Shown here: in pieces, positions 24,025 through 54,000 of the stretch
How positions within the stretch are numbered: the first letter of the stretch is position 1
Layout of the letters: each line of letters starts with the position of its first letter
Origin: Candidatus Cloacimonadota bacterium
GTDB lineage: Bacteria > Cloacimonadota > Cloacimonadia > JGIOTU-2
DNA: 64,000 nucleotides
Direction: 5' to 3'
Assembly (NCBI GenBank): GCA_023129415.1
Contig: JAGMCF010000058.1
Coordinates: 22,336-86,335, forward strand
The notes under the pieces: model-generated
What the model saw: the letters and a program-made list of their open reading frames with translations, nothing else
Database searches by the model: none
What the model was told of the DNA's origin: nothing
Made by a program: the position numbers and the translations under genes

Positions 24025-24043
24025 ATATTTTATTAGAAATTAG

Positions 24044-24128
24044 TCCCGATAGGTCGGGAGTAATTAGTCATTTAATTAAATAATTTCACGACAACTTGTT
24101 GGTAAGTTTCATTTTTTAAGTGCCTAAT
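24044..24128 (+). repeat. 85-nt conserved intergenic element, copy 1
   Basis: tcccgataggtcgggagtaattagtcatttaattaaataatttcacgacaacttgttggtaagttt... is about 80% identical to 31788-31872. Confidence 0.8.
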
Positions 24129-24331: not shown

Positions 24332-24640
24332 ATGAGTAAATCTTTTTACCAAAGAGTAATAGATATTATAAAAAACATCCCTGAAGGCAAAGTGGCTACC
24401 TACGGACAGATTGCATCTTATGCAGGTAATTCCTATGCATCTCGTCAGGTTGCTTATATATTACATTCATCTTCTCGTAAAGAAAATCTTCCCTGGCACA
24501 GAGTTGTAAACAGCAAAGGCAGTATTTCATTGAAACTTGGTTATGGATATGAACTTCAAAAAGAAATGTTAAAAGATGAAGGAATAATCTTTAACAAAAA
24601 TGGTCGTATAGATTTAAAACGCTTTCTCTGGCTTCCTTAA
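24332..24640 (+). CDS. alkyltransferase-like (ATL) protein: MGMT DNA-binding fold lacking the acceptor cysteine
   Basis: It is 102 aa. GKVATYGQIA matches the MGMT fold, and the active-site PCHRV is replaced by PWHRVV, as in Atl1-type proteins. Confidence 0.7.
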   Translation: MSKSFYQRVIDIIKNIPEGKVATYGQIASYAGNSYASRQVAYILHSSSRKENLPWHRVVNSKGSISLKLGYGYELQKEMLKDEGIIFNKNGRIDLKRFLWLP

Positions 24641-24829: not shown

Positions 24830-25813
24830 ATGAGAAAAATGACAAAAAAATTGGTCTTAAACAAGAAGATTTCTATCATCTTAGTTCCAGAAGCACCATA
24901 TAATTTTGATGCTAATTTTCATAAGTCATCTCATTTCCCATCTTCTGATAATGTTTGGGAAAAAGGAAGATACTGGATAACAATGATCTGGAAAAGCAAA
25001 AAGTTAGGATTAATATTTGAAAATACTGGAACAGTAGACGAACCCAAAATTAAGGTTAATATCTATTTTCAAAAAGAGTTATCAAAAGATTATATAGATA
25101 GTCTAATTCCTGAAATTCGGTGGAGATTTAATTTTGACCAGGATATATCAGAATTTTGTAAGAGATTCAAAAACGATAATATTCTTGGTCCGATTATTAA
25201 AAAATGGAGAGGAATGAAACCAATCGCTGCAAATTCTCTTTATGAAACTCTAATTATTTACCTTGTGCTGCAAAATGCGACTGTAAGAAGAAGCGTTCAA
25301 ATGCTTGAGAACCTATTTGATAGATTTGGGGGAAAAGTAAAATTTGATGGACGAATTCTTTCAACTTTTTGGCAACCCAAAGATATGGCAAAATCTACAG
25401 AACAAGAATTAAAAGATTTAAAAGTTGGATATAGAGCGAAGTTCTTTACGAAAATTACAGAGCAGTTTGTAAATAAAAAAATTAATGAATTCACTTTAAG
25501 AAAAACACCTAAAGAAATAATAAAAAAAGAAATGTTAAAGCTCTATGGAATTGGTCCCGCTTCTATTGAATATTTGCTTTTCGATGATTTCTACTTTCTT
25601 GATAGTTTAGAAACAATTCCACCCTGGGAACAAAAGATAATGTCAAGGATAATATTTAATGAAAAATTAATCCCTGTAAAAGAAATATTGGAATTTTTTA
25701 AGAAGCGATATACAGGATGGGAAAAATTAGCGTTTCATTACATCTGGGAAGATATTTTTTGGAAGAGAAAACATCAACATATTGAATGGTTAGAAAAAGA
25801 GATAAGATTATAG
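24830..25813 (+). CDS. HhH-GPD superfamily base-excision glycosylase (AlkA/3-methyladenine glycosylase II-like)
   Basis: LYETLIIYLVLQNATVRRS, LKVGYRAKF, and helix-hairpin-helix LYGIGPASIEYLLF. The residue at the usual catalytic Asp position is unclear (..PPWEQK..). Confidence 0.55.
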   Translation: MRKMTKKLVLNKKISIILVPEAPYNFDANFHKSSHFPSSDNVWEKGRYWITMIWKSKKLGLIFENTGTVDEPKIKVNIYFQKELSKDYIDSLIPEIRWRFNFDQDISEFCKRFKNDNILGPIIKKWRGMKPIAANSLYETLIIYLVLQNATVRRSVQMLENLFDRFGGKVKFDGRILSTFWQPKDMAKSTEQELKDLKVGYRAKFFTKITEQFVNKKINEFTLRKTPKEIIKKEMLKLYGIGPASIEYLLFDDFYFLDSLETIPPWEQKIMSRIIFNEKLIPVKEILEFFKKRYTGWEKLAFHYIWEDIFWKRKHQHIEWLEKEIRL

Positions 25814-26160
25814 GTATGCCGTATCAAGTGTGCCAGCGACTTCGTACAACAGCGTGTTTGCGACGCTTCGCTAAATCCCTTCGAGACTTTGCAAACGCTC
25901 GGAATGCTATCCGAAATTTTTTATATTTAATGTCACTGGTGTCGCATTAAAGTGTCATTAAATCCTTATAACTTCTGCTATTTTGCGAAGTTAAGTGCTA
26001 TGAAAAAATTAATCGATTTTGACTTTAAATTTTTACTTGCCCTTATGTGTTATCCAAATCCCGTAAGAAATTTTATTTCTTTTGTTATTCCTCAAGACAA
26101 GCGCGAAAAACGCAAAAACAACTTATTTAAATTCAATATTGTCCGTTTGCCTTTGCGCAG

Positions 26161-26290
26161 CCTGTCCGCCGTAATACTATGGAAGGCGGGCCTGTCCGCC
26201 GTAATACTATGGAAGGCGGGCCTGTCCGCCGTAATACTATGGAAGGCGGGCCTGTCCGCCGTATCCCGAAGATTCGGGAGGAAGGCGGGC
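26161..26290. repeat. tandem array of a 30-bp hairpin unit (3 perfect copies plus 1 copy carrying a nested tcccgaagattcggga hairpin)
   Basis: cctgtccgccgtaatactatggaaggcggg occurs three times (26161-26250), followed by cctgtccgccgta[tcccgaagattcggga]ggaaggcgggc. Confidence 0.9.
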
Positions 26291-26390: not shown

Positions 26391-27194
26391 ATGATAAAAT
26401 CTTTAGGGAATAATAAATGGATAATGGATTATCACATACATACAACTCTTTCTGATGGCAAAGGCAATCATAAGGATTATATAAAAACGGCTCAAAAAAG
26501 AAAAATAGATGAAATTGGATTCTCCGACCATTTATGTTTAAAGAAAGTGAGTTGGGCAATGGAACTTTCGCATATCTCTTCTATGATAGAAACAATTAAT
26601 CATCTGAAAGAAAATTCAAAGGCCGTTATCAAATTAGGCATAGAAATGGATTACTTTCTTGGTTATGAGGATAATATTAAAGAAATCATTGATAGCATTC
26701 CTTTTGATTATGTGATTGGTTCCGTTCATTTTATAAATGATTGGACAGTTGATCACCCTGATAATATTTCAGAATATGATAAATGGGATATAGATGAATT
26801 ATACAAAGTTTACTTTAATTTAGTCCAAATGGCAGCTAAATCTAAATTGTTTGATATTATTGGTCATCCTGATGTTATAAAAAAATTTGGTTTCAAACCT
26901 AAAAGAGATATAAGTATTTTATTAGAAGAAACTGCTGAGGTTTTTAAAAATAGTGGAATTTGTGTTGAAATTAATACAAGTGGATTAACAAAACCTTGTA
27001 AAGAGATTTATCCAGGTAAAAAACTTATAAAAATGTGTTTTGATAAAGGAGTTCCTGTTATACTTGGTTCTGATGCGCATAGACCAAAAGATATCGGACA
27101 GTATTTTGATAAAGCATTAAAATTGCTTAAAGATGTTGGATATACAGAAATTGTTCAATTCACAAAAAGGAAAAGAAAATTTATAAGAATATGA
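26391..27194 (+). CDS. PHP-family phosphatase (histidinol-phosphatase HisJ-like)
   Basis: Metal-ligand motifs DYHIHT, GFSDH, GSVHF, IGHPD, EINTSG and GSDAH. An alternative start is ATG 26424. Confidence 0.7.
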   Translation: MIKSLGNNKWIMDYHIHTTLSDGKGNHKDYIKTAQKRKIDEIGFSDHLCLKKVSWAMELSHISSMIETINHLKENSKAVIKLGIEMDYFLGYEDNIKEIIDSIPFDYVIGSVHFINDWTVDHPDNISEYDKWDIDELYKVYFNLVQMAAKSKLFDIIGHPDVIKKFGFKPKRDISILLEETAEVFKNSGICVEINTSGLTKPCKEIYPGKKLIKMCFDKGVPVILGSDAHRPKDIGQYFDKALKLLKDVGYTEIVQFTKRKRKFIRI

Positions 27195-27739
27195 AGGAAG
27201 GAAAAAATGTAATGAAAACCGAAATAAAAATTTATAAACAAGGGTTAGAAGAATACACTAAAGTAGGCATATTTTTGGGCAATCTTCTGATGCTCCTGTG
27301 GATTGCTCTGGGAACTATTGGATGTTGGTTCTTGTTTCCGCTGGCAGCCTGGATTTATCTTGCTTTTGCTATTATAATGGTTGGGATTATGTTAAGAAAA
27401 TTACTTTGCATAAATTGTTATTATTACAACAAATGGTGCTGTATGGGTTGGGGTAAACTTTCTGCTCTATTTTTTAAAAAAGGCAATATTGAAAAATTCA
27501 ATACAAGTATTGGCCAAAAACTTGCTCCCATTACTTACGGAATTTTAACACTTCTTCCTCTTGTTTTAATTGTTATTTCAATCATTCAAAAATTTGCTGT
27601 CTCTAAAATAGTTGTGTTATTGCTTCTGCTTTTGATCACATTTTACAGTGGAGCAATCAGCAGGAAAAGAACCTGTGCAAAATGTAAGATGAGATTAATA
27701 TGTCCGGGAAGTGCTGTTCGTCCCCACACAAATGGATAG
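27191..27739 (+). CDS. Cys-rich polytopic membrane protein, function unknown
   Basis: About 4 hydrophobic helices, with CINCYYYNKWCC and a C-terminal [14 protein letters not shown]. The last 44 nt of this motif recur at 31674-31717. Confidence 0.5.
   Translation: MKEGKNVMKTEIKIYKQGLEEYTKVGIFLGNLLMLLWIALGTIGCWFLFPLAAWIYLAFAIIMVGIMLRKLLCINCYYYNKWCCMGWGKLSALFFKKGNIEKFNTSIGQKLAPITYGILTLLPLVLIVISIIQKFAVSKIVVLLLLLLITFYSGAISRKRTCAKCKMRLICPGSAVRPHTNG
27672..27715 (+). repeat. 44-bp direct repeat, left copy (3' end of the membrane-protein gene / 5' end of the GIY-YIG ORF)
   Basis: cctgtgcaaaatgtaagatgagattaatatgtccgggaagtgct matches 31674-31717 at 43 of 44 positions. Confidence 0.9.
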
Positions 27740-28002
27740 ATGTTATATTTTATGTATATGTTTTAAAAAGTAAAAAGGATAGGAATCTTTACATTGGCTC
27801 AACTAATGATCTTAGACGAAGAATGAGGGAACATAACACAGGTCGAGTATTTTCTACGAAATCCCGCAGACCTTTTGAGTTAATTTATTATGAAGCCTAT
27901 AAAACTGAAAAGGATGCAAGGAAAAGAGAAAAAGCACTGAAGTTAAGGTCGCGTGCTTTTGCTCAATTAAGGAAGCGTATTAATGAAAGTTTATCATCGT
28001 AA
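27700..28002 (+). CDS. GIY-YIG nuclease family protein (YhbQ/UPF0213-like)
   Basis: FYVYVLKS..NLYIGSTNDLRRRMREHN....PFELIYYEAY..EKDARKREKALK. The only canonical start (ATG 27700) overlaps the upstream gene by 40 nt in another frame. Confidence 0.75.
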   Translation: MSGKCCSSPHKWIDVIFYVYVLKSKKDRNLYIGSTNDLRRRMREHNTGRVFSTKSRRPFELIYYEAYKTEKDARKREKALKLRSRAFAQLRKRINESLSS

Positions 28003-29979: not shown

Positions 29980-30297
29980 ATGCAATTAATGAAAAGAATT
30001 AAAAAACTATATAAAATTATTTTGTTGATTGTTACTTTTGCTTTCTTGGAAGCATGTGCATTTCATCCAATTTATGTTCCGCATCCACCACCAGAATTGA
30101 TTGTAGAGATTAAACCTGTACGACCCTACTTTAATGCGGTTTGGATTACTGGGCACTGGAGATGGAGTCGCACAAAATATTGTTATGTATGGACTCCTGG
30201 CTGTTGGAAAAAAGCTCCTGTAGTTCGTATATGGATAAGTGGCTACTGGCAAAACACCCCACATGGATGGATCTGGATAAAAGGATATTGGAAATAA
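29980..30297 (+). CDS. small lipoprotein with YXWGXW/W-rich repeats
   Basis: GGAGG lies 4 nt before ATG 29980, the lipobox is FLEAC, and the repeats are GHWRWS..YVWTPGCW..ISGYWQ..WIKGYW. Confidence 0.5.
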   Translation: MQLMKRIKKLYKIILLIVTFAFLEACAFHPIYVPHPPPELIVEIKPVRPYFNAVWITGHWRWSRTKYCYVWTPGCWKKAPVVRIWISGYWQNTPHGWIWIKGYWK

Positions 30298-30399
30298 CTT
30301 ATTTCTGTCTAATATGAATGGTCTCAATTATTGAAAAGTTTGACGTGTTATTTCCCTGATATTTTTATATGCAATAAAAATATGGAGGAAAGAACCACA

Positions 30400-30591
30400 A
30401 TGATTAAAATAAGTGATTTTAATTGGATTAACCTCAACTTTATTCGTGAGATTGAGTTGTGTTCTGGTGAGAGTTTACAAAAATTTTCTTTTGTATTTCA
30501 TTCTCAAGACGGCAGCAACAGATATACTAGTAAAATATTTGGCTCAAAAGATGAAGCTGAAAATTGGCTAAATAATAATCTGCACAACTAA
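30400..30591 (+). CDS. hypothetical small protein (63 aa)
   Basis: The ORF has a GGAGG 11 nt upstream of ATG 30400. Alternative starts are at 30382 and 30331. No recognisable motif. Confidence 0.25.
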   Translation: MIKISDFNWINLNFIREIELCSGESLQKFSFVFHSQDGSNRYTSKIFGSKDEAENWLNNNLHN

Positions 30592-30921
30592 ACAATTAAA
30601 TATTATAATTATATTTTCATATCTTATTAACAAATTCACAAGACTGGTCTGAATTTTGTACTTCGAAAAATATATTATTTTTTTTCTTATTCAGAATTAG
30701 TTACATAATTTATACATGTTATAGTTGCTGCTAGCATGCTTATGTTATTTTGCTTTCTATATAAGGAGAGGTAAATCCAATTGTAGAAGGCATCAGATTA
30801 ACAATCTTTTTTTACAAAACAGCAAATTGCTAATTTAACCAATTTAGTGCTTGACAATTATTTATTAATTCTATAAAAGAATAGTTTCTATAAAATTAAA
30901 ATTTTGCAGTATATATTTACT

Positions 30922-31731
30922 ATGAAAAAAAATATCATTATTAAAGGCGCTTGTGAGCATAATCTAAAAAACATTGATGTAACACTTCCACGCAATAAAT
31001 TTATCGTGTTCACAGGAGTTAGTGGCTCTGGCAAATCATCTTTGGCTTTCGATACACTTTATGCAGAAGGACAGCGAAGATATATTGAATCACTCTCTTC
31101 TTATGCTCGTCAGTTTTTGGGTCAGATGGAAAAGCCCAAAGTTGATTACATTGAAGGGCTTTCACCAGCAGTATCCATTGAGCAAAAAGCAGCAAGTCAT
31201 AACCCGCGTTCTACTGTCGGCACTATTACTGAAATATACGATTATCTCCGTGTATTATATGCAAGAGTTGGAACTCAATACTGCTATAAATGTGGTGCAC
31301 AAGTTAGCTCACAGTCTGCAGATCAGATGATAAATTATTTGCTTGGTTTACCTGAAGGAACGCGTATTCAAATTTTAGCTCCTCTTGTTCGGGAAAGAAA
31401 GGGTGAACATAAGGATGTATTTGAACGGATTAAAAGAGATGGATTTGTTCGTGTTAGAGTTAATGGAATCATTCGCGATATTAATGAAAACATCGTTCTT
31501 GATAAAAAAAGTAAGCACAATATTGAGGTTGTGGTTGATAGATTAATAATCAAAAAAGGAATTCAAAGCAGACTTGCTGATTCTATGGAAATTGCTTTAG
31601 AACTCGCAAACGGAATTGTAATGATTGACTATCCAAAGGAGAAGAAAACCCAGCTTTTCAGTAAAACGAATGCCTGTGCAAAATGTAAAATGAGATTAAT
31701 ATGTCCGGGAAGTGCTATAAAAAGTTCGTAA
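30922..31731 (+). pseudogene. truncated duplicate of the uvrA 5' end (about 255 codons) fused in frame to a 15-codon tail homologous to the 3' end of the membrane-protein gene at 27672-27715
   Basis: It is collinear with uvrA 33185-33950. It keeps Walker [10 protein letters not shown] but ends ...[20 protein letters not shown], where real UvrA continues NACPKCNISYPEL. Confidence 0.8.
31674..31717 (+). repeat. 44-bp direct repeat, right copy (tail of the truncated uvrA copy)
   Basis: cctgtgcaaaatgtaaaatgagattaatatgtccgggaagtgct. Confidence 0.9.
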
Positions 31732-31787
31732 AGCCAATATTATAAAAATGAAAGAACTAAGAAGGAAATAAAGACAAAAAAAATTCA

Positions 31788-31872
31788 TCTCGACAGGTCA
31801 GGAGTAATTAGTCATTTAATCAATTAATTTTGCGACAACTTGTTGGTAAGTTTAACTCATTAAGCGACTAAT
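31788..31872 (+). repeat. 85-nt conserved intergenic element, copy 2
   Basis: tctcgacaggtcaggagtaattagtcatttaatcaattaattttgcgacaacttgttggtaagttt... has the same orientation as copy 1 and lies 106 nt upstream of the AAA/DUF4143 gene. Confidence 0.8.
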
Positions 31873-31977
31873 GTGCCCCAGAAAAATTTAAAATAAATTA
31901 CTAACAAAATTCTTGACAAGACTGAGTAGCTTATACAGATTGTACCCATAACTTCCAAAATGTAAAAAGGAGATTCG

Positions 31978-33150
31978 GTGATTAAAAGAACTATGCAGAA
32001 CATTCTGCTGGAAATGTTTCACTCTTTTCCAGTAGTTACAATTACAGGACCTCGTCAATCTGGGAAAACAACACTTGTAAAAATGACTTTCCCTGATATG
32101 GCTTATATCTCTTTAGAAGATTTGGATATGCGCCAATTTGCAGAAGATGACCCACGAGGATTGCTTTCACAATATGAAAACGGTCTTATTATAGATGAAG
32201 TTCAGCATGTGCCAGAACTTTTATCTTACATCCAGACAGTTGTGGATAAAAAGAGTAAACCCGGTTTATTTATCCTTACAGGTAGCAATCAATTTGAATA
32301 TATGCATTCTATCACCCAATCCCTTGCTGGCAGAACAGGTATATTGAAACTACTCCCCTTCTCCTTTGCGGAACTTTATGGCAAAAATACATCAGTCTAT
32401 TTAGAAGAAGTTATGTTCAAAGGATTTTATCCACGAATTTTTGACCAGAACATCAGACCGCAATTATTTCTTTCCAGCTATATGGAAAGTTATTTGGAAA
32501 GAGATGTCCGTTCTCTTCTTAATATACGAAACCTCCATCAATTCCATCGTTTTTTACAGATTTGTGCAGGTAGGACAGGACAAATATTAAATATGAGCGG
32601 TCTTGGAAATGAGATTGGGGTTTCTCATAAGACAATAAGAGAGTGGATCTCTGTACTGGAAGCAAGTTATATCATCTTTCTATTAAAACCATTTCATAGA
32701 AATTATAATAAAAGGATTATTAAATCGCCAAAACTTTATTTTATTGATGTTGGACTGTCTTCACACTTGCTTGGTATTGAAAATTTCAATCAATTGAAAA
32801 CACATCCACTTCGTGGAGAACTATTTGAAACTTTTGTTGTTATTGAATTTCTTAAGTATCGCTTTAATTGGGGATTGCGAAATAATTTGTATTATTTTAG
32901 AGATAATATTGGAAACGAGGTAGACTTAATTATTGAAACTGGAGATGGGCTATCCCCAGTAGAAATAAAATCCGGTAAGACAATTAACTCCCAATTTTTT
33001 AAAGGATTGCAATATTTCAAAAAATTAGATACAAAAAATGTTAAAACCCCTGCTTTAATTATCGGGGATATTGTAAAACAAAAAAGAACCGAATGTTTTG
33101 TTTACGGATATCCTTTTGTTGAAGATTTAAGCGAAAAATTAATGGGATGA
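31978..33150 (+). CDS. AAA-family ATPase with DUF4143-like C-terminal domain
   Basis: GTG start 5 nt after AAAGGAG. Walker A GPRQSGKTT and Walker B GLIIDEVQ match the typical AAA_14 + DUF4143 architecture by eye. Confidence 0.75.
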   Translation: MIKRTMQNILLEMFHSFPVVTITGPRQSGKTTLVKMTFPDMAYISLEDLDMRQFAEDDPRGLLSQYENGLIIDEVQHVPELLSYIQTVVDKKSKPGLFILTGSNQFEYMHSITQSLAGRTGILKLLPFSFAELYGKNTSVYLEEVMFKGFYPRIFDQNIRPQLFLSSYMESYLERDVRSLLNIRNLHQFHRFLQICAGRTGQILNMSGLGNEIGVSHKTIREWISVLEASYIIFLLKPFHRNYNKRIIKSPKLYFIDVGLSSHLLGIENFNQLKTHPLRGELFETFVVIEFLKYRFNWGLRNNLYYFRDNIGNEVDLIIETGDGLSPVEIKSGKTINSQFFKGLQYFKKLDTKNVKTPALIIGDIVKQKRTECFVYGYPFVEDLSEKLMG

Positions 33151-33184
33151 AAAACTTACATTATATATTGGCTATTAGTATAAA

Positions 33185-36010
33185 ATGAAAAAAAATATCA
33201 TCATTAAAGGCGCTTGTGAGCATAATCTAAAAAACATTGATGTAACACTTCCACGCAATAAATTTATCGTGTTCACAGGAGTTAGTGGCTCTGGCAAATC
33301 ATCTTTGGCTTTCGATACACTTTATGCCGAAGGACAGCGAAGATATATTGAATCACTCTCTTCTTATGCTCGTCAGTTTTTGGGTCAGATGGAAAAGCCG
33401 AAAGTAGATTACATTGAAGGGCTTTCTCCGGCTGTATCAATTGAACAAAAAGCAGCAAGTCATAACCCGCGTTCTACTGTCGGTACTGTTACTGAAATAT
33501 ATGATTACCTGCGAGTATTATATGCAAGAGTTGGGACTCAATACTGCTATAAATGTGGTGCACAAGTTAGCTCACAGTCTGCAGATCAGATGATACATTA
33601 TTTACTTGGGTTACCTGAAGGAACGCGTATTCAAATTTTAGCTCCTCTTGTTCGGGAAAGAAAAGGTGAGCATAAGGATGTGTTTGAACGGATTAAAAGA
33701 GATGGTTTTGTTCGTGTTAGAGTTAATGGAATAATCCGTGATATTAATGAAAATATAGTCCTTGATAAAAAGAGCAAGCACAATATTGAAGTAGTAGTGG
33801 ATAGATTAATAATCAAAAAAGGAATTCAAAGCAGATTGGCTGACTCTATGGAAATTGCTCTGGAACTTGCAAATGGAATCGTGATGATTGATTATCCAAA
33901 AGAGAAGAAAACACAACTGATCAGCAAAAAGAACGCCTGCCCAAAATGTAATATCAGTTATCCAGAATTAACGCCACAAATGTTTTCTTTCAACAGTCCT
34001 CTTGGCATGTGCAAAACCTGTAACGGACTTGGTACACGGATGGAATTAGATATTGATAAACTTATTCCAGATAAAACAAAATCAATTCTGGATGGTGCTA
34101 TTGCTTATTGGGGTGAAATGGGTATGAAAAGAAGGTCCTGGAGATATAGCATTCTTCGCCAGCTTGCTGACGATTTTGAATTCTCACTCTCTACACAGTG
34201 GAAAAATTTAAGCGAGACTGCAAAGGATGTAATTCTCTACGGCTCACGAGGGAAAAAGTTCAGAATTGACTGGGATGGTGAGATAAGTTCCGGACATTTT
34301 ATGACACCTTTTGAGGGCTTAATACCAACAATAGGGAGACGCTTTAGAGAAACAAAATCGGATGCAATGCGAAGGATGTATCTCAATTACTACAGCGAGA
34401 AACCCTGTGCTGATTGCGGAGGGGCAAAACTCCGCATTGAAAGTAGATATGTGAAAATCAATAGCAAATCAATAGTTGAACTTTCTAAGATGTCAATAAG
34501 AGAGATATTAAAATTTATGATAAATCTTCACCTTACTGGAAATCAACAGATTATTGCTGAAGAATTAATTAAAGAGATAAAAGCTCGTCTAAAATTTATG
34601 ATAAATGTAGGATTGCATTATCTTACACTAAATAGAAGTGCACCAAGTCTTTCAGGTGGAGAATCTGAAAGAATAAGGTTAGCAAGCCAAATTGGCAGCG
34701 GTCTTGTTGGAGTAATGTATATTCTTGATGAGCCAACTATTGGTCTTCATCAAAGAGATAACCATCGCTTGATAGACATGTTAATCGGTTTAAAAAATCT
34801 CGGCAACACTGTCATAGTAGTTGAGCACGATGCTAAAATGATACAAAGTGCAGATTATATTCTTGATTTCGGACCACTTGGTGGGATTTATGGTGGAGAA
34901 ATCGTTGCTTCTGGTTCTTTAGAAGATATCATCAAGAATGAAAATTCTCTTACTGGCAAATACTTGAGCAATCAGCTTTCCATCCCATCTCCAAAAAAAT
35001 ATCGGGAAAACAACGGAGACTTTCTTAAGATTACTAAAGTAGCTCAGAATAATCTGAAACATATAGATGTAAAAATTCCTCTTGGACTTTTTACATGTAT
35101 TACAGGAGTTTCAGGTTCAGGAAAAAGCTCTTTAGTCAACCAAACCTTGTATCCTGCTCTTGCGAATCGGCTGTATAGGGGTTCACATAAAGAAGGAAAA
35201 TATCAAGATGTAAAACACTATTACAAAATTGATAAAATCATCAACATCACTCAAGACCCGATTGGACGCACTCCCCGCTCAAATCCTGCCACATACACAA
35301 AAGTATTGGATGATATTCGGCAGATATTTGCAAGCACTCCTGCTGCAAAAGTTCGTGGTTATAAACCAGGTCGTTTTAGCTTTAATGTTCCAGGCGGGAG
35401 ATGTGAATCCTGCAGCGGAAGCGGAGTTAAACAAATTGAAATGCACTTTCTCCCTGATGTGTTCATTACCTGCGAAGTATGCAAAGGAAAACGGTTCAAT
35501 AAGGAAACTTTACAGATTAAATATAAAGGAAAAAACATAGATGATGTGCTTAGTATGGATGTGCAGGAAGCATTGAAATTCTTTGAAAATATTCCCTCAT
35601 TAAGACGAAAACTACAAACATTATGTGAAGTAGGACTCGATTATATCAAACTTGGCCAGCCATCTCCCACTCTTTCGGGCGGAGAAGCTCAACGGGTAAA
35701 ACTATCTCGTGAATTAAGCAAAACAAGTACTGGAAAAACTCTTTATATCTTAGATGAACCTACGACAGGCTTACACTTTCATGACATAAAAAAATTAATT
35801 GCAGTTCTAAACAGTCTTGTGGATAAGGGTAACACTGTAGTTGTTATTGAACATAATCTTGATGTGATAAAGTGTGCAGATTATATTATTGATTTGGGCC
35901 CAGAGGGTGGAGATGAAGGAGGAAAAATTGTAACTACTGGCACGCCAAAGGAAGTGGCATTAAACAAGAAGTCTTATACTGGACAATATTTGAGAAAGGT
36001 TGTAGAATAA
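33185..36010 (+). CDS. uvrA: excinuclease ABC subunit A
   Basis: It is 941 aa, with two ABC modules (GVSGSGKSS twice, LSGGE twice) and zinc-finger Cys pairs. Confidence 0.97.
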   Translation: MKKNIIIKGACEHNLKNIDVTLPRNKFIVFTGVSGSGKSSLAFDTLYAEGQRRYIESLSSYARQFLGQMEKPKVDYIEGLSPAVSIEQKAASHNPRSTVGTVTEIYDYLRVLYARVGTQYCYKCGAQVSSQSADQMIHYLLGLPEGTRIQILAPLVRERKGEHKDVFERIKRDGFVRVRVNGIIRDINENIVLDKKSKHNIEVVVDRLIIKKGIQSRLADSMEIALELANGIVMIDYPKEKKTQLISKKNACPKCNISYPELTPQMFSFNSPLGMCKTCNGLGTRMELDIDKLIPDKTKSILDGAIAYWGEMGMKRRSWRYSILRQLADDFEFSLSTQWKNLSETAKDVILYGSRGKKFRIDWDGEISSGHFMTPFEGLIPTIGRRFRETKSDAMRRMYLNYYSEKPCADCGGAKLRIESRYVKINSKSIVELSKMSIREILKFMINLHLTGNQQIIAEELIKEIKARLKFMINVGLHYLTLNRSAPSLSGGESERIRLASQIGSGLVGVMYILDEPTIGLHQRDNHRLIDMLIGLKNLGNTVIVVEHDAKMIQSADYILDFGPLGGIYGGEIVASGSLEDIIKNENSLTGKYLSNQLSIPSPKKYRENNGDFLKITKVAQNNLKHIDVKIPLGLFTCITGVSGSGKSSLVNQTLYPALANRLYRGSHKEGKYQDVKHYYKIDKIINITQDPIGRTPRSNPATYTKVLDDIRQIFASTPAAKVRGYKPGRFSFNVPGGRCESCSGSGVKQIEMHFLPDVFITCEVCKGKRFNKETLQIKYKGKNIDDVLSMDVQEALKFFENIPSLRRKLQTLCEVGLDYIKLGQPSPTLSGGEAQRVKLSRELSKTSTGKTLYILDEPTTGLHFHDIKKLIAVLNSLVDKGNTVVVIEHNLDVIKCADYIIDLGPEGGDEGGKIVTTGTPKEVALNKKSYTGQYLRKVVE

Positions 36011-36283: not shown

Positions 36284-37414
36284 ATGAAAAATCCATTCGT
36301 ATATGGTGAAGCAGTTACTGGAGAAAATTTTTCAAATCGTAAAGAAGAACTTTGTGAAATTACCCGAGATCTTGAGGATTGCGAACGCATCTTCCTTATT
36401 TCTCCCAGACGATATGGGAAAACCTCTCTTATTATGAATGCTTTAGAGAATTTGAGAACTAAAGGATTATATACAGTTTACATTGATCTCTATAAGGCTA
36501 CTTCTATACAAAAACTGCTTGAAATTTATGCTTCTGAGATTGTTAGGGCTGTGGAATCTAAACTTGAGAGGATGTTCAATTTCTTGAAAAAGACTCTACC
36601 TGGCTTACGACCGAAAATTACAATTCAACCTGATGGTTCTGCAACTATTGGGATAGAACATTTTCCCACAGAAAGTGATACATTGAGATTTCTTGATGAA
36701 ATCTATGAACTTCCACAGAAATTAGCTGAGAAAAAGAATAAAAATTTTATTATTGTTTTTGACGAATTTCAAGAGATAAGAAACTTCAACGGAGAATCTA
36801 TAGAAAAGGCAATGCGAGCGAGTTTTCAACATCATAGCAAAGTTGGTTATCTTTTCGCTGGCTCAAAAAGGCATATCCTCTATGACATGGTTGCCAATCC
36901 CAGTAAGGCATTTTATAAGATGGGAAGAGTCATTACATTAAATAAAATACCCAGACTTGAGTTTAGCGAATTTCTGAGACAAGCTTTTGAAAGGACAGAA
37001 TTTACTCTGGAGGAAGGAGCTGTTCATAAAATATTAGACCTTGTCAATGATTGCCCATATAATGCTCAGTTTCTCTGCCATAAGCTCTGGGATGTCTATT
37101 TTGATGTGAAGAAAATAAGGACTAATGACATTGAACCAACACTGAATCTTATTCTCACTGAAAATACGCCATTCTACCTGTCTATATGGGATGGATTATC
37201 CATGCATCAGCGACGATTACTACATTCTATTGCTAATCTTGGTGGAGATCATATATTTTCTCAAGAGTTCATTGCCTCTGGTGATTTAGGAAGTTCTTCC
37301 ACTATTCAAACATCCCTGCGACTTTTAATAAAAAAACAGGTGTTGGACAAAGAAAAAGATATTTACTTTGTTACCGATGTCTTCTTTAAAGAGTGGATAA
37401 GGAGGAAGATTTAA
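36284..37414 (+). CDS. ATPase of the archaeal-ATPase (ATPase_2/DUF234) family
   Basis: NPFVYGEAVTGENFSNRKEEL, Walker A SPRRYGKTS, Walker B IIVFDEFQE, and a C-terminal winged-helix-like tail. Confidence 0.7.
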   Translation: MKNPFVYGEAVTGENFSNRKEELCEITRDLEDCERIFLISPRRYGKTSLIMNALENLRTKGLYTVYIDLYKATSIQKLLEIYASEIVRAVESKLERMFNFLKKTLPGLRPKITIQPDGSATIGIEHFPTESDTLRFLDEIYELPQKLAEKKNKNFIIVFDEFQEIRNFNGESIEKAMRASFQHHSKVGYLFAGSKRHILYDMVANPSKAFYKMGRVITLNKIPRLEFSEFLRQAFERTEFTLEEGAVHKILDLVNDCPYNAQFLCHKLWDVYFDVKKIRTNDIEPTLNLILTENTPFYLSIWDGLSMHQRRLLHSIANLGGDHIFSQEFIASGDLGSSSTIQTSLRLLIKKQVLDKEKDIYFVTDVFFKEWIRRKI

Positions 37415-37440: not shown

Positions 37441-37497
37441 AAACAAAAAAACCTTCTTGAGAACGATGAGGTCAGGAAATCCTTTTTGGAGGGATAG
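37441..37497 (+). pseudogene. last ~19 codons of a LivF-like ABC ATPase gene (remnant)
   Basis: It translates to KNLLENDEVRKSFLEG* and is homologous to the end of the longer remnant at 39842-40000. Confidence 0.4.
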
Positions 37498-37606
37498 AAA
37501 AGCAAATTAATTAAGAAGCAAAATAAAATACATTTGGAGGCTTACAATGAAAAAAATCTTCGCTTTATTATTAGTCTTAATACCATTAAGTTTATTCGCT
37601 CAAAAG
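37447..37606 (+). repeat. 160-bp direct repeat, copy 1: livF-like tail + 5'UTR/SD + signal-peptide codons
   Basis: It aligns with 39950-40109 at a constant offset of 2503 nt. The core (ggatagaaaagcaaattaattaagaagcaaaataaaatacatttggaggcttacaatgaaaaaaatcttcgc) is identical. Confidence 0.9.
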
Positions 37607-39649: not shown

Positions 39650-40000
39650 AGAAAAATCAGTATTGCCCAAACAAGAAGCCAGAAAATATAGAAAAAAGAT
39701 ACTCAAGATTAGAGAGCAATGTCCTTTCTGAGGAGTGAGAAGAATGATTGAGAAACTGGAATTAAACTATTCCCATACTACTGTTCATAAGAAGATAAAA
39801 CAAGCTTGTCAGATTAAGAAGAAGAAAAAGATATAAATAGAGACGGGACTACTATTCTGCTGGTTGAGCAGAATGCAAGAATGGCTTTGGAATATGCAGA
39901 CTGATGTTATGTTTTTGAAATTGGTAAAATTGCATTTAAAGATGAAGCAAAAAACCTTCTTGAGAATGATGAGGTCAGGAAATCATTCTTGGGTGGATAG
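39650..40000 (+). pseudogene. decayed remnant of a LivF/LivG-like branched-chain amino acid ABC transporter ATPase gene
   Basis: Positions 39842-40000 translate to DGTTILLVEQNARMALEYAD*CYVFEIGKIAFKDEAKNLLENDEVRKSFLGG*, with an in-frame TGA at 39902. Upstream there are only frameshifted traces of an LSGGE-like signature. Confidence 0.5.
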
Positions 40001-40109
40001 AAAAGCAAATTAATTAAGAAGCAAAATAAAATACATTTGGAGGCTTACAATGAAAAAAATCTTCGCATTATTATTAATCATAATACCATTTAGTTTATTT
40101 GCACAAGGT
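39950..40109 (+). repeat. 160-bp direct repeat, copy 2
   Basis: See copy 1. Similarity stops after codon 20 (signal peptide ...SLFAQ) of both downstream genes. Confidence 0.9.
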
Positions 40110-43664: not shown

Positions 43665-43850
43665 CTGAAAATCCCTTCGCCACAAAGGTTCATCCTTCGC
43701 AGTAGCAGTCCTACTGCTACGGAGAATGGACACAAAGACACAAAGAAAAAAATTAAAAACATGATTAATTCAACAACTCTAATGTAATTTTCGTGCTCCT
43801 TTGTGTCAGTTCGCTGACATGAGTGTTTCATCTGAAAATCCTTTGCCACA
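43665..43850 (-). repeat. start-codon-abutting repeat element, copy B (with the 68-bp module nested) plus the 3' end of a second unit
   Basis: The reverse complement reads ...tgtggcaaaggattttcag|atgaaacactcatgtc-hairpin-acaaaggagcacgaaaattacattagagttgttgaattaatcatgtttttaattttttt ctttgtgtctttgtg[68-bp module]tttgtggcgaagggattttcag|ATG. Confidence 0.85.
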
Positions 43851-46256: not shown

Positions 46257-46437
46257 CTGAAAATCCTTTCGCCACAAAGGCACAAAGACACAAAGTAAAT
46301 AAATAAAAACATGATAAATTCACCAAATCTTACACGCTCATTCCCAAGCCCTACCGAATTTAATTGGGTATTGGGAATGCCTGCAAATTTTCATGCTCCT
46401 TTGTATCCCGATTTTTCGGGGGACATGTATGTTTCAT
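46257..46437 (-). repeat. start-codon-abutting repeat element, copy C (variable region replaced by a cattcccaa...ttgggaatg hairpin)
   Basis: The reverse complement reads atgaaacatacatgtc-ccccgaaaaatcggg-atacaaaggagcatgaaaattt...atcatgtttttatttatttactttgtgtctttgtgcctttgtggcgaaaggattttcag|ATG. Confidence 0.85.
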
Positions 46438-51076: not shown

Positions 51077-54000
51077 TTATCTTAAAATAGAAAATTTGTT
51101 AATATAATTTTCATTAGAATCTGATTTAACTACATAAAAATAAGTACCATTGGCAATATCCTTGCCACTTGCATTCTTCCCGTCCCAATTAATTTCAAAA
51201 ATTTCATTAGCTGTTTGAGAACCGCAATTAAGTTCAATAACAATTTGATTGGAAACATCATAGATTGTAATCGTATAATTTCCTGAAGTCTTTGGTGTAT
51301 AGTGAAAAGTACCATCATCTACCGATTCAGGATTATAGGGATTGGGATAGAAGCAGTTTTCAATTTCATAAGATGAAACTGTAATATAATCCATCTTTGT
51401 TTCGGTATCTGTAGAATCATTTTCATCGGTAACTATTAATGAAACTGTATGTGCTCCAGGATTCTGATATATATATGTTGGATTTTGATCATATGAATCG
51501 ATAGTACCATCATTCTGGAAATCCCATTGCCATTCAATAATTGATACTGTTCCGGGTATTGATAGGTCTGTAAAATTGACAGTGAGTGGCGCATTACCTG
51601 AGGTTGGGGTTGCTACAAAATCAGCAGTAGGGTTAGTTGTTGAGATTACAGTTATATAGTCCGTCTTTATTTCAGTATCTGTAGAATCATTTTCATCTGT
51701 AACTGTTAGTGATACTGTATATGTTCCAGGACTCTGATATATATGAATAGGATTTTGCACAGAGGAGCTATCTTCATCACCAAAATACCATTTCCATTCT
51801 ATAATTGCGCCTATTCCTTGAATAGATTGGTCCGTAAAATTAACTGTTAATGGAGCATATCCGGATGTTGTATCTGCTACAAAATTAGCAGTGGGGTTAG
51901 TTGTTGAGATTACAGTTATATAGTCTGTCTTTATTTCAGTATCCGTAGAATCGTATTCATCAGTAACTGTTAATGAAACTATATAAATTCCAGGATTCTG
52001 AAATATATGAATAGGATTTTGCACAGAGGAGCTATCTTCATCACCAAAATACCATTTCCATTCTATAATTGCGCTTGTTCCTTGAGTAGATTGGTCTGTA
52101 AAATTAACTGTTAACGGAGCATATCCAGATGTTGTGTCTGCTACAAAATTAGCAGTGGGAGTTATTGGATCTATAGTAATATAATCAATTTTGGTTTCAG
52201 TATCTGTAGAATCATGTTCATCAGTAACTATTAACGACACTGTATAAGTTCCAGGATTCTGATATATATAGGTTGGATTTTGATCATATGAATCGATAGT
52301 ACCATCGTTCTGGAAATCCCATTGCCATTCAATAATTGATACTGTTCCGGGTATTGATAGGTCTGTAAAATTGACAATGAGTGGTGAATTGCCTAAGGTT
52401 GGTATTGCTATAAAATTAGCAGTGGGGTTAGTTGTTGAGATTACAGTTATATAGTCTGTTTTTATTTCAGTATCAGTGGAATTGTATTCATCAATTACTG
52501 TTAATGAGACTGTATAAGTTCCTGGAATCTGATATATATAAGTAGGATTTTGCACAGATGAACTATCTCCATCACCGAAATACCATTTCCATTCTATAAT
52601 TGCGCCTGTTCCTTGAGTAGATTGGTCTGTAAAATTAACTGTTAACGGAGCATATCCGGAGGTTGTGTCTGCTACAAAATTAGCAGTGGGAGGTATTGGA
52701 TCTACAGTAATATAATCAATTTTTATTTCAGTATCTGTAGAATCATTTTCATCTGTAACTGTTAGTGATACTGTATATGTTCCAGGACTCTGATATATAT
52801 GAGTAGGACTTTGAACAGATGAACTATCACTATCACCAAAATACCACTTCCATTCTATAATTGCACCTGTTCCTTGAATAGATTGGTCTGTAAAATTAAC
52901 TGTTAATGGAGCATATCCAGATGTTGTGTCTGCTACAAAATTAGCAGTGGGGTTAGTTGTTGAGATTACAGTTATATAGTCTGTTTTTATTTCAGTATCT
53001 GTAGAATCATTTTCATCTGTAACTGTTAGTGAAACTGTATAAGTTCCAGGACTCTGATATATATGAGTGGGACTTTGAACAGATGAACTATCACTATCAC
53101 CGAAATACCACTTCCATTCTATAATTGCACCTGTTCCTTGAATAGATTGGTCTGTAAAATTGACTGTTAATGGAGCATATCCAGATGTTGTGTCTGCTAC
53201 AAAATTAGCAGTGGGGTTAGCTGTTGAGATTACAGTTATATAGTCTGTTTTTATTTCAGTATCAGTAGAATCATATTCATCAGTAACTGTTAATGATACT
53301 GTATATATTCCAGGATTATCATATATATGAGTAGGATTTTGGACAGATGAACTATCTCCATCACCGAAATACCATTTCCATTCTACAATTATGCCTGTTC
53401 CTTGAGTAGATTGGTCTGTAAAATTAACTGTTAATGGAGCATATCCAGATGTTGTATCTGCTACAAAATTAGCAGTGGGGTTAGTTATTGAGATTACAGT
53501 TATATAGTCTGTTTTTATTTCAGTATCTGTAGAATCATTTTCATCAGTAACTGTTAATGATACTGTATATATTCCAGGATTATCATATATATGAGTAGGA
53601 TTTTGAACAGATGAACTATCACTATCACCAAAATACCATTTCCATTCAATAATTGCTCCTGTTCCTTGAGTAGATTGGTCTGTAAAATTGACCGTTAGTG
53701 GTGCATATCCGGATGTTGTGTCTGCTACAAAATCAGCAGTGGGATTAGTTATTGAGATTACAGTTATATAGTCTGTTTTTATTTCAGTATCAGTAGAATC
53801 ATGTTCATCGGTAACTATTAATGAAACTGTATATATTCCAGGATTATCATATATATGAGTAGGATTTTGAACAGATGAACTATCACTATCACCAAAATAC
53901 CATTTCCATTCTACTATTGCACCTGTTCCTTGTGAAGATTGGTCTGTAAAATTAACTGTTAACGGAGCATTACCTGAAACAGGAGTAGCTGAGAAATTGG

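Follow-up and report, generated by a model that had tools for sequence, protein, structure and literature searches.

How a chromosome comes to carry the start of uvrA twice, on either side of an ATPase gene, is the question raised by this locus, which lies in a 64,000-nt stretch of Cloacimonadota DNA (hereafter the window). Nucleotides 1-750 of the intact gene (copy B) align without gaps with a displaced segment (copy A) at an offset of 2263 nt and with 53 differences, forming a direct repeat of the homologous segment around the insert (30922-31671 and 33185-33934; Table 1). The duplication of the uvrA 5′ end around the ATPase gene is real and is positioned as in the preliminary description, which had extended collinearity across 30922-31688. 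This holds as far as 31671-31676, where uvrA homology in copy A stops, and fails beyond, where a patch of another gene begins; the last ~16 nt credited to uvrA are not uvrA, and an alignment run past the true uvrA part yields 57 differences across 771 nt.

Table 1. Features of the duplicated uvrA start and its surroundings (positions in the window).
Feature	Start	End	Strand	Description
Patch source	27672	27715	+	3′ end of the 182-aa ORF 27191-27739, 4 kb upstream; overlaps the start of the GIY-YIG ORF 27700-28002
Native uvrA upstream region (up1)	30247	30921	+	Small ORF 30331-30591 and intergenic region
Copy A, displaced truncated uvrA 5′ end	30922	31671	+	uvrA nt 1-750, codons 1-250
Fusion ORF, 269 aa	30922	31731	+	UvrA 1-251, 14 codons from gene 27191-27739, IKSS, stop
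Junction J1, GCCTG microhomology between uvrA and patch source	31672	31676	+	Seen when both copies are aligned with 27649-27739
Templated patch, 44 nt	31673	31716	+	43/44 identity to 27672-27715
Filler, 64 nt	31717	31780	+	Sequence read directly
Structured repeat element, 85-92 nt	31781	31872	+	84% identical to a second copy at 24037-24128
ATPase upstream region common to type II contigs	31874	31977	+	Alignment of the window, L093 and the other element copy
ATPase gene (AAA_14 + DUF4143), 390 aa	31978	33150	+	GTG start preceded by AAAGGAG
Spacer between ATPase stop and uvrA start, 34 nt	33151	33184	+	Identical in type II contigs
Intact uvrA, 941 aa	33185	36010	+	Copy B is 33185-33934

The 53 differences comprise 48 synonymous and 5 non-synonymous changes, with a dN/dS of 0.023 between the copies, so the earlier impression that they are overwhelmingly synonymous was correct. 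This value indicates divergence between functional alleles rather than pseudogene decay. Where about five amino-acid changes had been estimated, we counted six (I102V, N138H, F246I, T249K, A253P and K256N), but those at A253 and K256 fall in the sequence taken from another gene (the 27672-27715 patch) and not in uvrA.

By its profile matches above the curated cut-off (NCBIfam PRK00349, 1475 bits, cut-off 1147; TIGR00630, 1410 bits), the intact copy is predicted to encode full-length UvrA (excinuclease ABC subunit A), with the Pfam domains UvrA_inter, UvrA_DNA-bind and ABC_tran. Copy A carries the Walker A motif and the UvrB-interaction domain (Pfam UvrA_inter at residues 131-237), and the exact 269-aa fusion protein that it opens is also recorded in GCA_030629245.1. 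As the preliminary description had proposed, this truncated copy sits behind the native upstream region of uvrA: up1 is ~94% identical to positions 645-1319 of contig L002, where full-length uvrA comes directly next. By eye, up1 contains TTGACA at 30851-30856 and TATAAA at 30872-30877. A promoter scan of the region returned nothing above chance. An RNA contig from run X9 starts at 30857, continues through uvrA nt 767 and runs on into an uninterrupted, intact uvrA.

The gene between the two copies encodes an N-terminal AAA_14 P-loop domain (PF13173, 100 bits, cut-off 27) followed by DUF4143 (PF13635, 175 bits, cut-off 28), and it matches the PADLOC family PDC-S01 (model PDLC04790) over residues 1-354 with an E-value of 5e-103. 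On these matches the ATPase is a member of a candidate phage-defence family, and its anti-phage role is a candidate one. Like other PDC-S01/COG1373 AAA_14-DUF4143 ATPases, it matches the family models over its full length; DUF4143 is listed in a survey of the PD-(D/E)XK superfamily (PMC3424549). Variable regions can hold several such ATPase genes; L087, another Cloacimonadota contig, has four within 12 kb. Unlike these relatives, the gene studied here adjoins uvrA, an arrangement found in none of 80 other genomes searched for a DUF4143 ATPase beside uvrA, and the spacing of 34 nt originally given for the intact uvrA was confirmed. It is the sole gene of the 1.5-kb insert, in which we found no integrase, recombinase or replication gene. 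RNA fragments from run X9 cover 31930-32050 and 32506-32656 in the ATPase region, and a TTGACA can be seen by eye upstream of the gene at 31913-31918.

Comparison with related contigs revealed three arrangements. In type I, represented by L002, uvrA comes immediately after the small ORF and the native upstream region; the X9 RNA contig, which passes from that region into intact uvrA, is also of this type. In type II, the DUF4143/PDC-S01 ATPase lies 34 nt before uvrA in a far more divergent background; L093 and L083 share the order WXXGXW gene, two hairpins, ATPase, 34 nt and uvrA, and are identical in order from 31898 on. Type III, the arrangement of the window, joins the other two. In it, the terminator-like hairpin upstream of the ATPase lacks its right arm. 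The locus is a real structural variant in an uncultured cold-seep Cloacimonadota population. Run X4 contains type II and has zero depth over the type III filler; a contig from this run that continues into the native upstream region matches copy A over the uvrA start. The ATPase is 98.7-99.7% identical across type II and type III contigs, with the next relatives at ≤69%. The suggestion that foreign DNA was involved is supported by L093, in which the ATPase and uvrA nt 1-229 are 99.2% identical to the window and the left flank just 74%.

The left joint of the insert is composite. Around J1, the agreement extends to 15 of 17 positions, since a C-x-K-C motif is encoded in either gene. The patch that follows is not expected by chance (no such match in 100 shuffles), and a source allele with the sequence ...AAAGCCTGTGC is seen at loose Logan contig ends in runs X1 and X7. 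For the filler, no match was found elsewhere within the window. The hexamer GTTCGT occurs 7 nt past the end of the patch and, in the source, directly after 27715. The structured repeat element has fold z-scores of -3.2 (copy at 24037) and -1.9 (copy at 31781) and no Rfam match; other left flanks in runs X1 and X2 point to more copies of it. Type II homology picks up again at ~31874, just past the element.

On the basis of these observations, we favour, at a probability of about 0.6, a reading in which ATPase-uvrA DNA was imported and then fixed in two different ways, through homologous recombination at its right end and an illegitimate join at its left, linking two uvrA upstream arrangements already present in the population. 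The incoming segment, derived from type II and reaching from the ATPase promoter region through the ATPase gene at least into the start of uvrA, would have entered a type I chromosome. Its right side would have recombined homologously inside or beyond uvrA, and its left side was joined illegitimately to the resident uvrA at nt ~755, as can be read from a joint built of a 5-nt microhomology, the 44-nt patch, 64 nt of filler and a copy of the short repeat. This joint falls within sequence that has homology to the incoming DNA, which is why the resident 5′ end escaped replacement; it would have stayed behind the native promoter region as a truncated in-frame fusion ORF (251 + 18 codons), while the working uvrA would have acquired an imported upstream context. 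The working gene is probably co-transcribed with the ATPase gene or expressed from a point inside it. Bacteria are known to integrate linear DNA in this one-sided manner, homologous at one end and illegitimate at the other (PMC3240628). The intact uvrA differs from L002 at 13-32 positions per 100 nt over nt 1201-2100 and at 0-3 per 100 nt past nt 2400; this drop after nt ~2400 is only suggestive of a right-hand crossover.

We also examined the divergence along the repeat. The 2 differences reported for the first 200 nt lie at positions 18 and 144, and in the last 250 nt, where ~33 had been estimated by eye, we counted ~35. Differences are spaced non-uniformly (maximum chi-square 23.7, reached in 0 of 2000 permutations), and dS rises from 0.044 (nt 1-213) to 0.31 (nt 214-549) and 1.62 (nt 550-750). 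The gradient previously described is thus significant as non-uniformity but consists of steps rather than a smooth slope. Of the seven alleles compared, copy B carries 17 private substitutions (nt 216-750), against 2 in copy A; the latter differs from L097, a contig with the native upstream region, at 19 positions in 742 nt. The common local allele is thus that of copy A, with copy B the unusual one, and the idea that the truncated copy evolved in another lineage and then arrived here is not supported. In the first 215 nt, copy A, copy B, L093 and L097 show at most 4 differences from one another, and the same stretch shows 16-34 differences from L001 and L002. Copy B is a block common to the population up to nt 215 and a divergent allele from nt 216 on, and gene conversion within this genome, previously invoked for the near-identity at the 5′ end, is not required.

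In the reading that we favour, the copies are functional alleles drawn from a population that recombines freely, which is why they differ almost purely synonymously, and the steps along the repeat (215 nt of near-identity, then dS 0.3, then 1.6) reflect the allelic mosaic of that population. Mosaic distances between alleles are seen throughout. Gene conversion between the copies may have contributed in some strains: in L082, the part of copy B identical to copy A reaches nt 412, as against nt 215 in the window, and this longer stretch does fit a conversion tract. L093, a type II contig, shows copy-A states at nt 216 and 222, which would be unexpected if copy B were wholly derived from type II, unless type II alleles are themselves mosaic.

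The structure might instead have arisen in situ, by template switching or break repair (FoSTeS/MMBIR-like) in one genome, with divergent uvrA alleles later overwriting most of copy B; we regard this as unlikely. The joint contains several short templated pieces with microhomologies, one of them from 4 kb away, and the patch and filler could equally be the sign of a replicative template-switch event. Crossovers would be confined to uvrA homology, leaving the insert-proximal part of copy B in its original state, and the switch-point does differ between the window and L082, yet the ATPase, the filler and 4 kb downstream are identical; the population is also strongly mosaic. However, the ATPase cassette would already have had to be in the same cell, and the type II adjacency of ATPase, 34 nt and uvrA, so nearly identical beside so divergent a flank, points most simply to transfer between lineages. 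A strain-chimeric contig could, moreover, account for the switch-point at nt 412 in L082, as copies A and B share identical stretches of 71-125 nt.

Campbell-type integration, the mechanism offered in the preliminary description, appears improbable. A non-replicating circle of ~2.26 kb carrying uvrA nt -34 to 755, the filler and the ATPase would have integrated by a single crossover in the uvrA 5′ end, followed by conversion of the first ~215 nt. The A-Z-B layout, a direct repeat of the homologous segment around inserted DNA, formally equals the product of such a crossover, and circularisation of linear DNA by ligation followed by single-crossover integration is documented in E. coli (PMC3240628). 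The L082 switch-point is compatible with the conversion step, and the copy-A states in L093 also favour this route. However, its closing joint would need the 44-nt patch of a resident gene from 4 kb upstream as well as the repeat element, and a clean Campbell circle leaves unexplained the resident-genome sequence and the filler at that junction. The truncated copy is, in addition, the common local allele with its 5′ end linked to the native upstream region (X4 contig), whereas for nt 216-755 the reverse would be expected of a type II circle. Apart from the copy-A states in L093, this distribution argues against the reciprocal allele pattern of a single crossover, in which the 3′ part of the truncated copy and the insert would be of donor origin and the 3′ part of the intact copy resident. 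Type II and type I alleles both have the 5′ identity block, making post-integration conversion unnecessary, and the insert carries no recombinase or replication gene of its own. No pre-existing circle or element of this kind was found in any collection searched.

The preliminary description had also raised the collapse of strain variants during assembly. The type III structure recurs in at least five assemblies or samples produced by different assemblers: L081, from another assembly, is 99.99% identical over 13.4 kb, and L082, L092 and L094, from other samples or assemblers, cross the inner junctions. In run X1, a single junction-spanning contig of 1634 nt covers 31599-33232 with 0 differences at a depth of ~50; depth is 49-62 on the unique segments and doubles to 100 on the shared 5′ block. 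That co-occurring uvrA variants were mis-joined, with no genome holding both copies, is scarcely credible: the samples do contain several strains and arrangements and relatives' contigs break around uvrA, but k-mer overlap could not have produced the junction sequences, which are unique, recur across assemblers and, in X1, have the same depth as the other unique segments.

Among known systems, homology-facilitated illegitimate recombination (HFIR) of imported linear DNA, described in Acinetobacter baylyi, Streptococcus pneumoniae, Pseudomonas stutzeri and E. coli conjugation (PMC3240628), shares several features with the locus. In both, foreign DNA is joined at a microhomology (here GCCTG) at one end, which places a heterologous gene (the ATPase) beside a conserved one; the homologous anchor that HFIR has at the opposite end would here be uvrA. 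Classical HFIR usually deletes or replaces recipient DNA next to the anchor; here, by contrast, the illegitimate joint lies within the donor-homologous region, resident uvrA nt 1-755 are duplicated rather than deleted, and both a repeat element and templated filler, the 44-nt patch with its source 4 kb upstream, sit in the joint.

Rhs/CDI orphan toxin modules are displaced fragments left by module replacement. In Vibrio cholerae, one report describes orphan fragments arising in this way in T6SS effector/immunity arrays (PMC5361080). As in these orphans, an incoming module probably recombined through a conserved part of a gene and the truncated old part remains as a scar with a homologous stretch; unlike them, the locus involves a housekeeping repair gene, the 5′ end was displaced rather than the 3′ toxin end, and there is one fragment and no array. 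SXT/R391 integrative conjugative elements sit in the 5′ end of prfC, and SXT integrates at a short att core by means of a tyrosine integrase. As with prfC, the core gene is kept intact and receives a new 5′ end and upstream region from the inserted DNA, but the 2.26-kb insert lacks a recombinase and its repeat consists of ~750 nt of diverged homologous sequence.

Two bolder readings can be offered. One would see the highly conserved uvrA 5′ end as a portable homology arm with which a PDC-S01 defence-candidate ATPase gene hops between Cloacimonadota lineages whose flanks are only ~74% identical, the duplicated uvrA start being a recurrent footprint. The other would have the in-frame UvrA 1-251 fragment, with its Walker A motif, UvrB-binding domain and native promoter, kept to modulate nucleotide-excision repair or the neighbouring ATPase. 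We consider these proposals a long shot; the locus is a well-documented but ordinary scar of gene transfer. As such, it offers a clean natural case, from uncultured bacteria, of a candidate defence gene crossing between diverged lineages by riding beside a conserved core gene, and of the scar that results: a microhomology joint, templated filler from a few kb off and a displaced gene start. Annotation should count one uvrA here and not two, since the 269-aa 'UvrA' ORF is a fusion remnant. The locus also calls for caution, in that mostly synonymous, graded divergence between repeat copies need not mean an ancient duplication followed by gene conversion; where a population recombines, such a pattern may be no more than the allelic mosaic of both parents.

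The start of the 941-aa uvrA occurs twice in the window, with positions 30922-31694 aligning without gaps to 33185-33957, and the two copies bracket non-coding DNA and an ATPase gene (see table). The intact gene scored 1475 bits against NCBIfam PRK00349 (cut-off 1147). This duplication, as given in the preliminary description, was confirmed by independent data. A 13.4-kb contig from a separate assembly (L081; GCA_030629245.1) is 99.99% identical over the entire duplication, the inner junctions are covered by contigs from other samples and assemblers (L082, L094 and L092), and in sequencing run X1 one 1634-nt Logan contig spans 31599-33232 with 0 differences. Depth in X1 was 49-62 on unique segments versus 100 on the block common to both copies, matching what two copies in each genome should give. 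Together, these data rule out an assembly artefact. By its UvrA relatives, the window belongs to Candidatus Cloacimonadota, and its DNA occurs across many cold-seep metagenome runs.

Coordinates (window positions) of the duplication and of other features
Feature	Position	Details
Copy A, truncated uvrA	30922-31671	
Copy B, start of intact uvrA	33185-33934	intact gene 33185-36010
DNA between the copies		~280 nt non-coding, including the 85-92-nt repeat
ATPase gene between the copies	31978-33150	AAA_14 + DUF4143, 390 aa
Spacer, ATPase to uvrA		34 nt
85-92-nt repeat	24037-24128; 31781-31872	two copies, 84% identical; fold z-scores -3.2 and -1.9
ogt-like methyltransferase gene	24332-24640	
ogg-like glycosylase gene	24830-25813	
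Perfect tandem repeat	26160-26263	3.5 x 30-nt GC-rich unit (GCCTGTCCGCCGTAATACTATGGAAGGCGG), hairpin potential; between ogg-like and PHP-phosphatase genes
GIY-YIG nuclease-family ORF	27700-28002	small, stand-alone; overlaps the end of ORF 27191-27739; first 16 nt within the 44-nt segment copied to the uvrA junction
Second orphan ATPase gene	36284-37414	Pfam ATPase_2 / AAA_16, weak PDC-S01 hits; directly 3' of uvrA
158-nt direct repeat	37446-37603; 39949-40106	93% identical; opens each of two neighbouring genes; product of the first: 694 aa, type IX secretion C-terminal sorting domain
Short dispersed motif family (CACAAAGACACAAAG...)	43731-43780; 46273-46330	also reversed at L001 259-428, upstream of uvrA (blastn 71-77% identity)
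Long in-frame-looking tandem repeats	1843-2958; 51376-54997; 55321-59341	periods 102, 264, 732 nt; units 65-97% identical; probably giant repetitive surface proteins

Over 750 nt of genuine uvrA, copies A and B differ at 53 positions, 48 synonymous and 5 non-synonymous (dN/dS = 0.023), in line with the mostly synonymous divergence first reported. The earlier counts also held: the copies disagree at 2 of the first 200 nt, at ~35 of the final 250 nt and at 6 amino-acid residues. The differences are distributed significantly non-uniformly along the repeat (observed maximum chi-square reached in 0/2000 permutations), but the gradient described previously proceeds in steps rather than smoothly, with dS values of 0.044 (nt 1-213), 0.31 (nt 214-549) and 1.62 (nt 550-750). 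Two of the 6 aligned amino-acid differences, A253 and K256, are residues of a patch and not of uvrA.

This patch marks the left joint, which is illegitimate and microhomology-based, with templated filler. The final ~16 nt of copy A that resemble diverged uvrA are not uvrA; instead, 31673-31716 matches 27672-27715 at 43/44 positions. This source segment, 4 kb upstream in the window, ends the 182-aa ORF 27191-27739 on its 3' side, and a source allele matching at 44/44 is present on Logan contigs of runs X1 and X7. The switch from uvrA to the patch falls inside GCCTG (31672-31676), and the surrounding stretch matches at 15/17 positions, since uvrA and the source gene alike code for a C-x-K-C motif. 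The patch is followed by 64 nt without assigned origin, the 85-92-nt repeat and, from ~31874, the ATPase upstream region as seen on other contigs. Owing to this patchwork, the truncated ORF is an in-frame fusion of UvrA 1-251 with 18 foreign codons. That a break at the GIY-YIG ORF, which overlaps the patch source, seeded the patch is pure speculation.

Contigs from other assemblies and runs revealed two further arrangements. In type I, the native upstream region leads straight into uvrA: contig L002 carries a homologue of window 30247-30921 (~94% identity) with full-length uvrA directly after it, and a contig of the metatranscriptome X9 runs from 30857 past nt 767, continuing as intact uvrA. 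In type II, found on contigs L093 and L083, a WXXGXW-repeat gene and two hairpins precede the ATPase, the same 34-nt spacer and uvrA. The window itself (type III) is type I on the left as far as uvrA nt ~755 and type II on the right, with the patchwork in between. Run X4 contains types I and II, with zero depth on the type III filler. The left flank of type II shares just 74% identity with the window, as against 99.2% over the ATPase and uvrA nt 1-229; other ATPase relatives reach 69% identity at most; and a DUF4143 ATPase adjoined uvrA in 0/80 other uvrA neighbourhoods fetched. These observations point to a recent shift of the ATPase-uvrA block between diverged backgrounds. A general DUF4143 ATPase-uvrA association was rejected on the same 0/80 count.

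Comparison of seven alleles (copy A, copy B, copy B of contig L082 from sample SAMN18200504, L002, L001, L097 and L093) pointed the opposite way to the earlier view that the truncated copy had evolved elsewhere. Private substitutions number 2 in copy A, synonymous in both cases, and 17 in copy B, all but one synonymous, and L097, which has the native upstream region, is close to copy A. On this basis, copy A looks like an ordinary local allele, with the unusual allele in the intact gene. Every allele comparison was mosaic; at nt 676-750, for example, copy A differs from L002 at 4 positions and copy B at 16. Across nt 1-215, copy A, copy B, L097 and the type II contig L093 show ≤4 differences among themselves, and 16-34 positions differ from L001 and L002. 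This segment is therefore population-wide, and the later gene conversion first suggested by the 5' near-identity is not needed in this genome. L082 is identical to the window over the ATPase, the filler and a further 4 kb downstream, and its copy B has the copy-A state at 15/15 differing sites in nt 216-412, a pattern that fits an A-to-B conversion tract. It is also possible that this contig was threaded through a co-occurring strain, as the copies have identical stretches of 71-125 nt in common. Logan contigs extend over 55-270 nt of the informative region and do not phase copy-A and copy-B alleles to arrangement types.

The ATPase and the uvrA start are foreign in origin, and truncated and intact uvrA both survive. 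The recipient would have been a type I chromosome, and the right side was probably settled by homologous recombination within or past uvrA, as suggested by divergence from L002 that drops to near zero beyond uvrA nt 2400. Overall, imported DNA would have integrated by homology on one side and by illegitimate joining on the other. Such a course would correspond to HFIR, in which one end of the incoming DNA recombines by homology and the other is joined illegitimately (PMC3240628). Unusual in the window is the position of the joint within the stretch of homology, which gave a duplication instead of a deletion. A replicative template switch followed by allelic replacement is a serious rival to such an integration. 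Campbell integration of a circle, as originally proposed, is formally compatible with the layout but is disfavoured, since resident-genome filler sits at the would-be closing joint and the allele distribution speaks against it. Rfam (gathering thresholds) and tRNA scans of the entire window gave no matches, so the window has no tRNA/att-type integration site. The preliminary interpretation is partly supported: the entry of foreign DNA by recombination is borne out, the truncated copy as newcomer is not, and a clean Campbell circle is not favoured.

The 269-aa fusion ORF retains the Walker A motif and UvrB-interaction domain and is most simply a young remnant. With the truncated UvrA as query, a protein search gave solely partial UvrA proteins of ≤74% identity. 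Two short pieces of the UvrA N-terminus, on Mb-scale contigs (P0233 and P0149), were rejected as recurrent duplications; they are frameshift artefacts, as their assemblies contain many split genes (uvrB, ligA and uvrA in pieces). Intact uvrA is presumably expressed as in type II organisms, where the upstream context is the same; a promoter and terminator scan of 30500-33300 gave nothing above shuffled expectation.

The ATPase matches PDC-S01, which PADLOC lists as a candidate defence family (E 5e-103), and DUF4143 is included in a survey of the PD-(D/E)XK superfamily (PMC3424549). RNA fragments in X9 are identical to the gene. Exact look-up found a 378-aa form of the protein and no record of the 390-aa form, reflecting other start codons chosen by gene callers, and a JGI metagenome scan with the ATPase returned 3 distant loci only. 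Its nearest relatives lie in paralogue clusters (four DUF4143-type ATPase genes within 12 kb on L087, another Cloacimonadota contig) or beside a UvrD-like helicase (contig L091), with no flanking gene-fragment repeats in either. At L091 91-7251, the closest non-identical relative (69%) directly abuts a gene for a UvrD-helicase / PDDEXK_1 protein of >2000 aa, and the pair may form a two-gene defence module.

The hairpin core of the 85-92-nt repeat is conserved (the first copy reads TCCCGAtagGTCGGGA), and an exact 20-mer is common to both copies (GACAACTTGTTGGTAAGTTT). It matched no known RNA family in Rfam at gathering thresholds, and Logan contigs of runs X1 and X2 carry more copies with different left flanks. 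An ncRNA or a small dispersed element would be possible identities. The ogt-like and ogg-like genes, 6-9 kb upstream of uvrA, form a loose DNA-repair gene cluster. Relatives' contigs L001, L002 and L081 all stop at or just before the uvrA 3' end, L002 and L081 at one window position (35843), which, together with the second orphan ATPase, places uvrA between two strain-variable slots.

Of moderate to low general interest, the locus is a documented case of a known event: horizontal acquisition through homologous and illegitimate recombination that left a displaced gene fragment behind.
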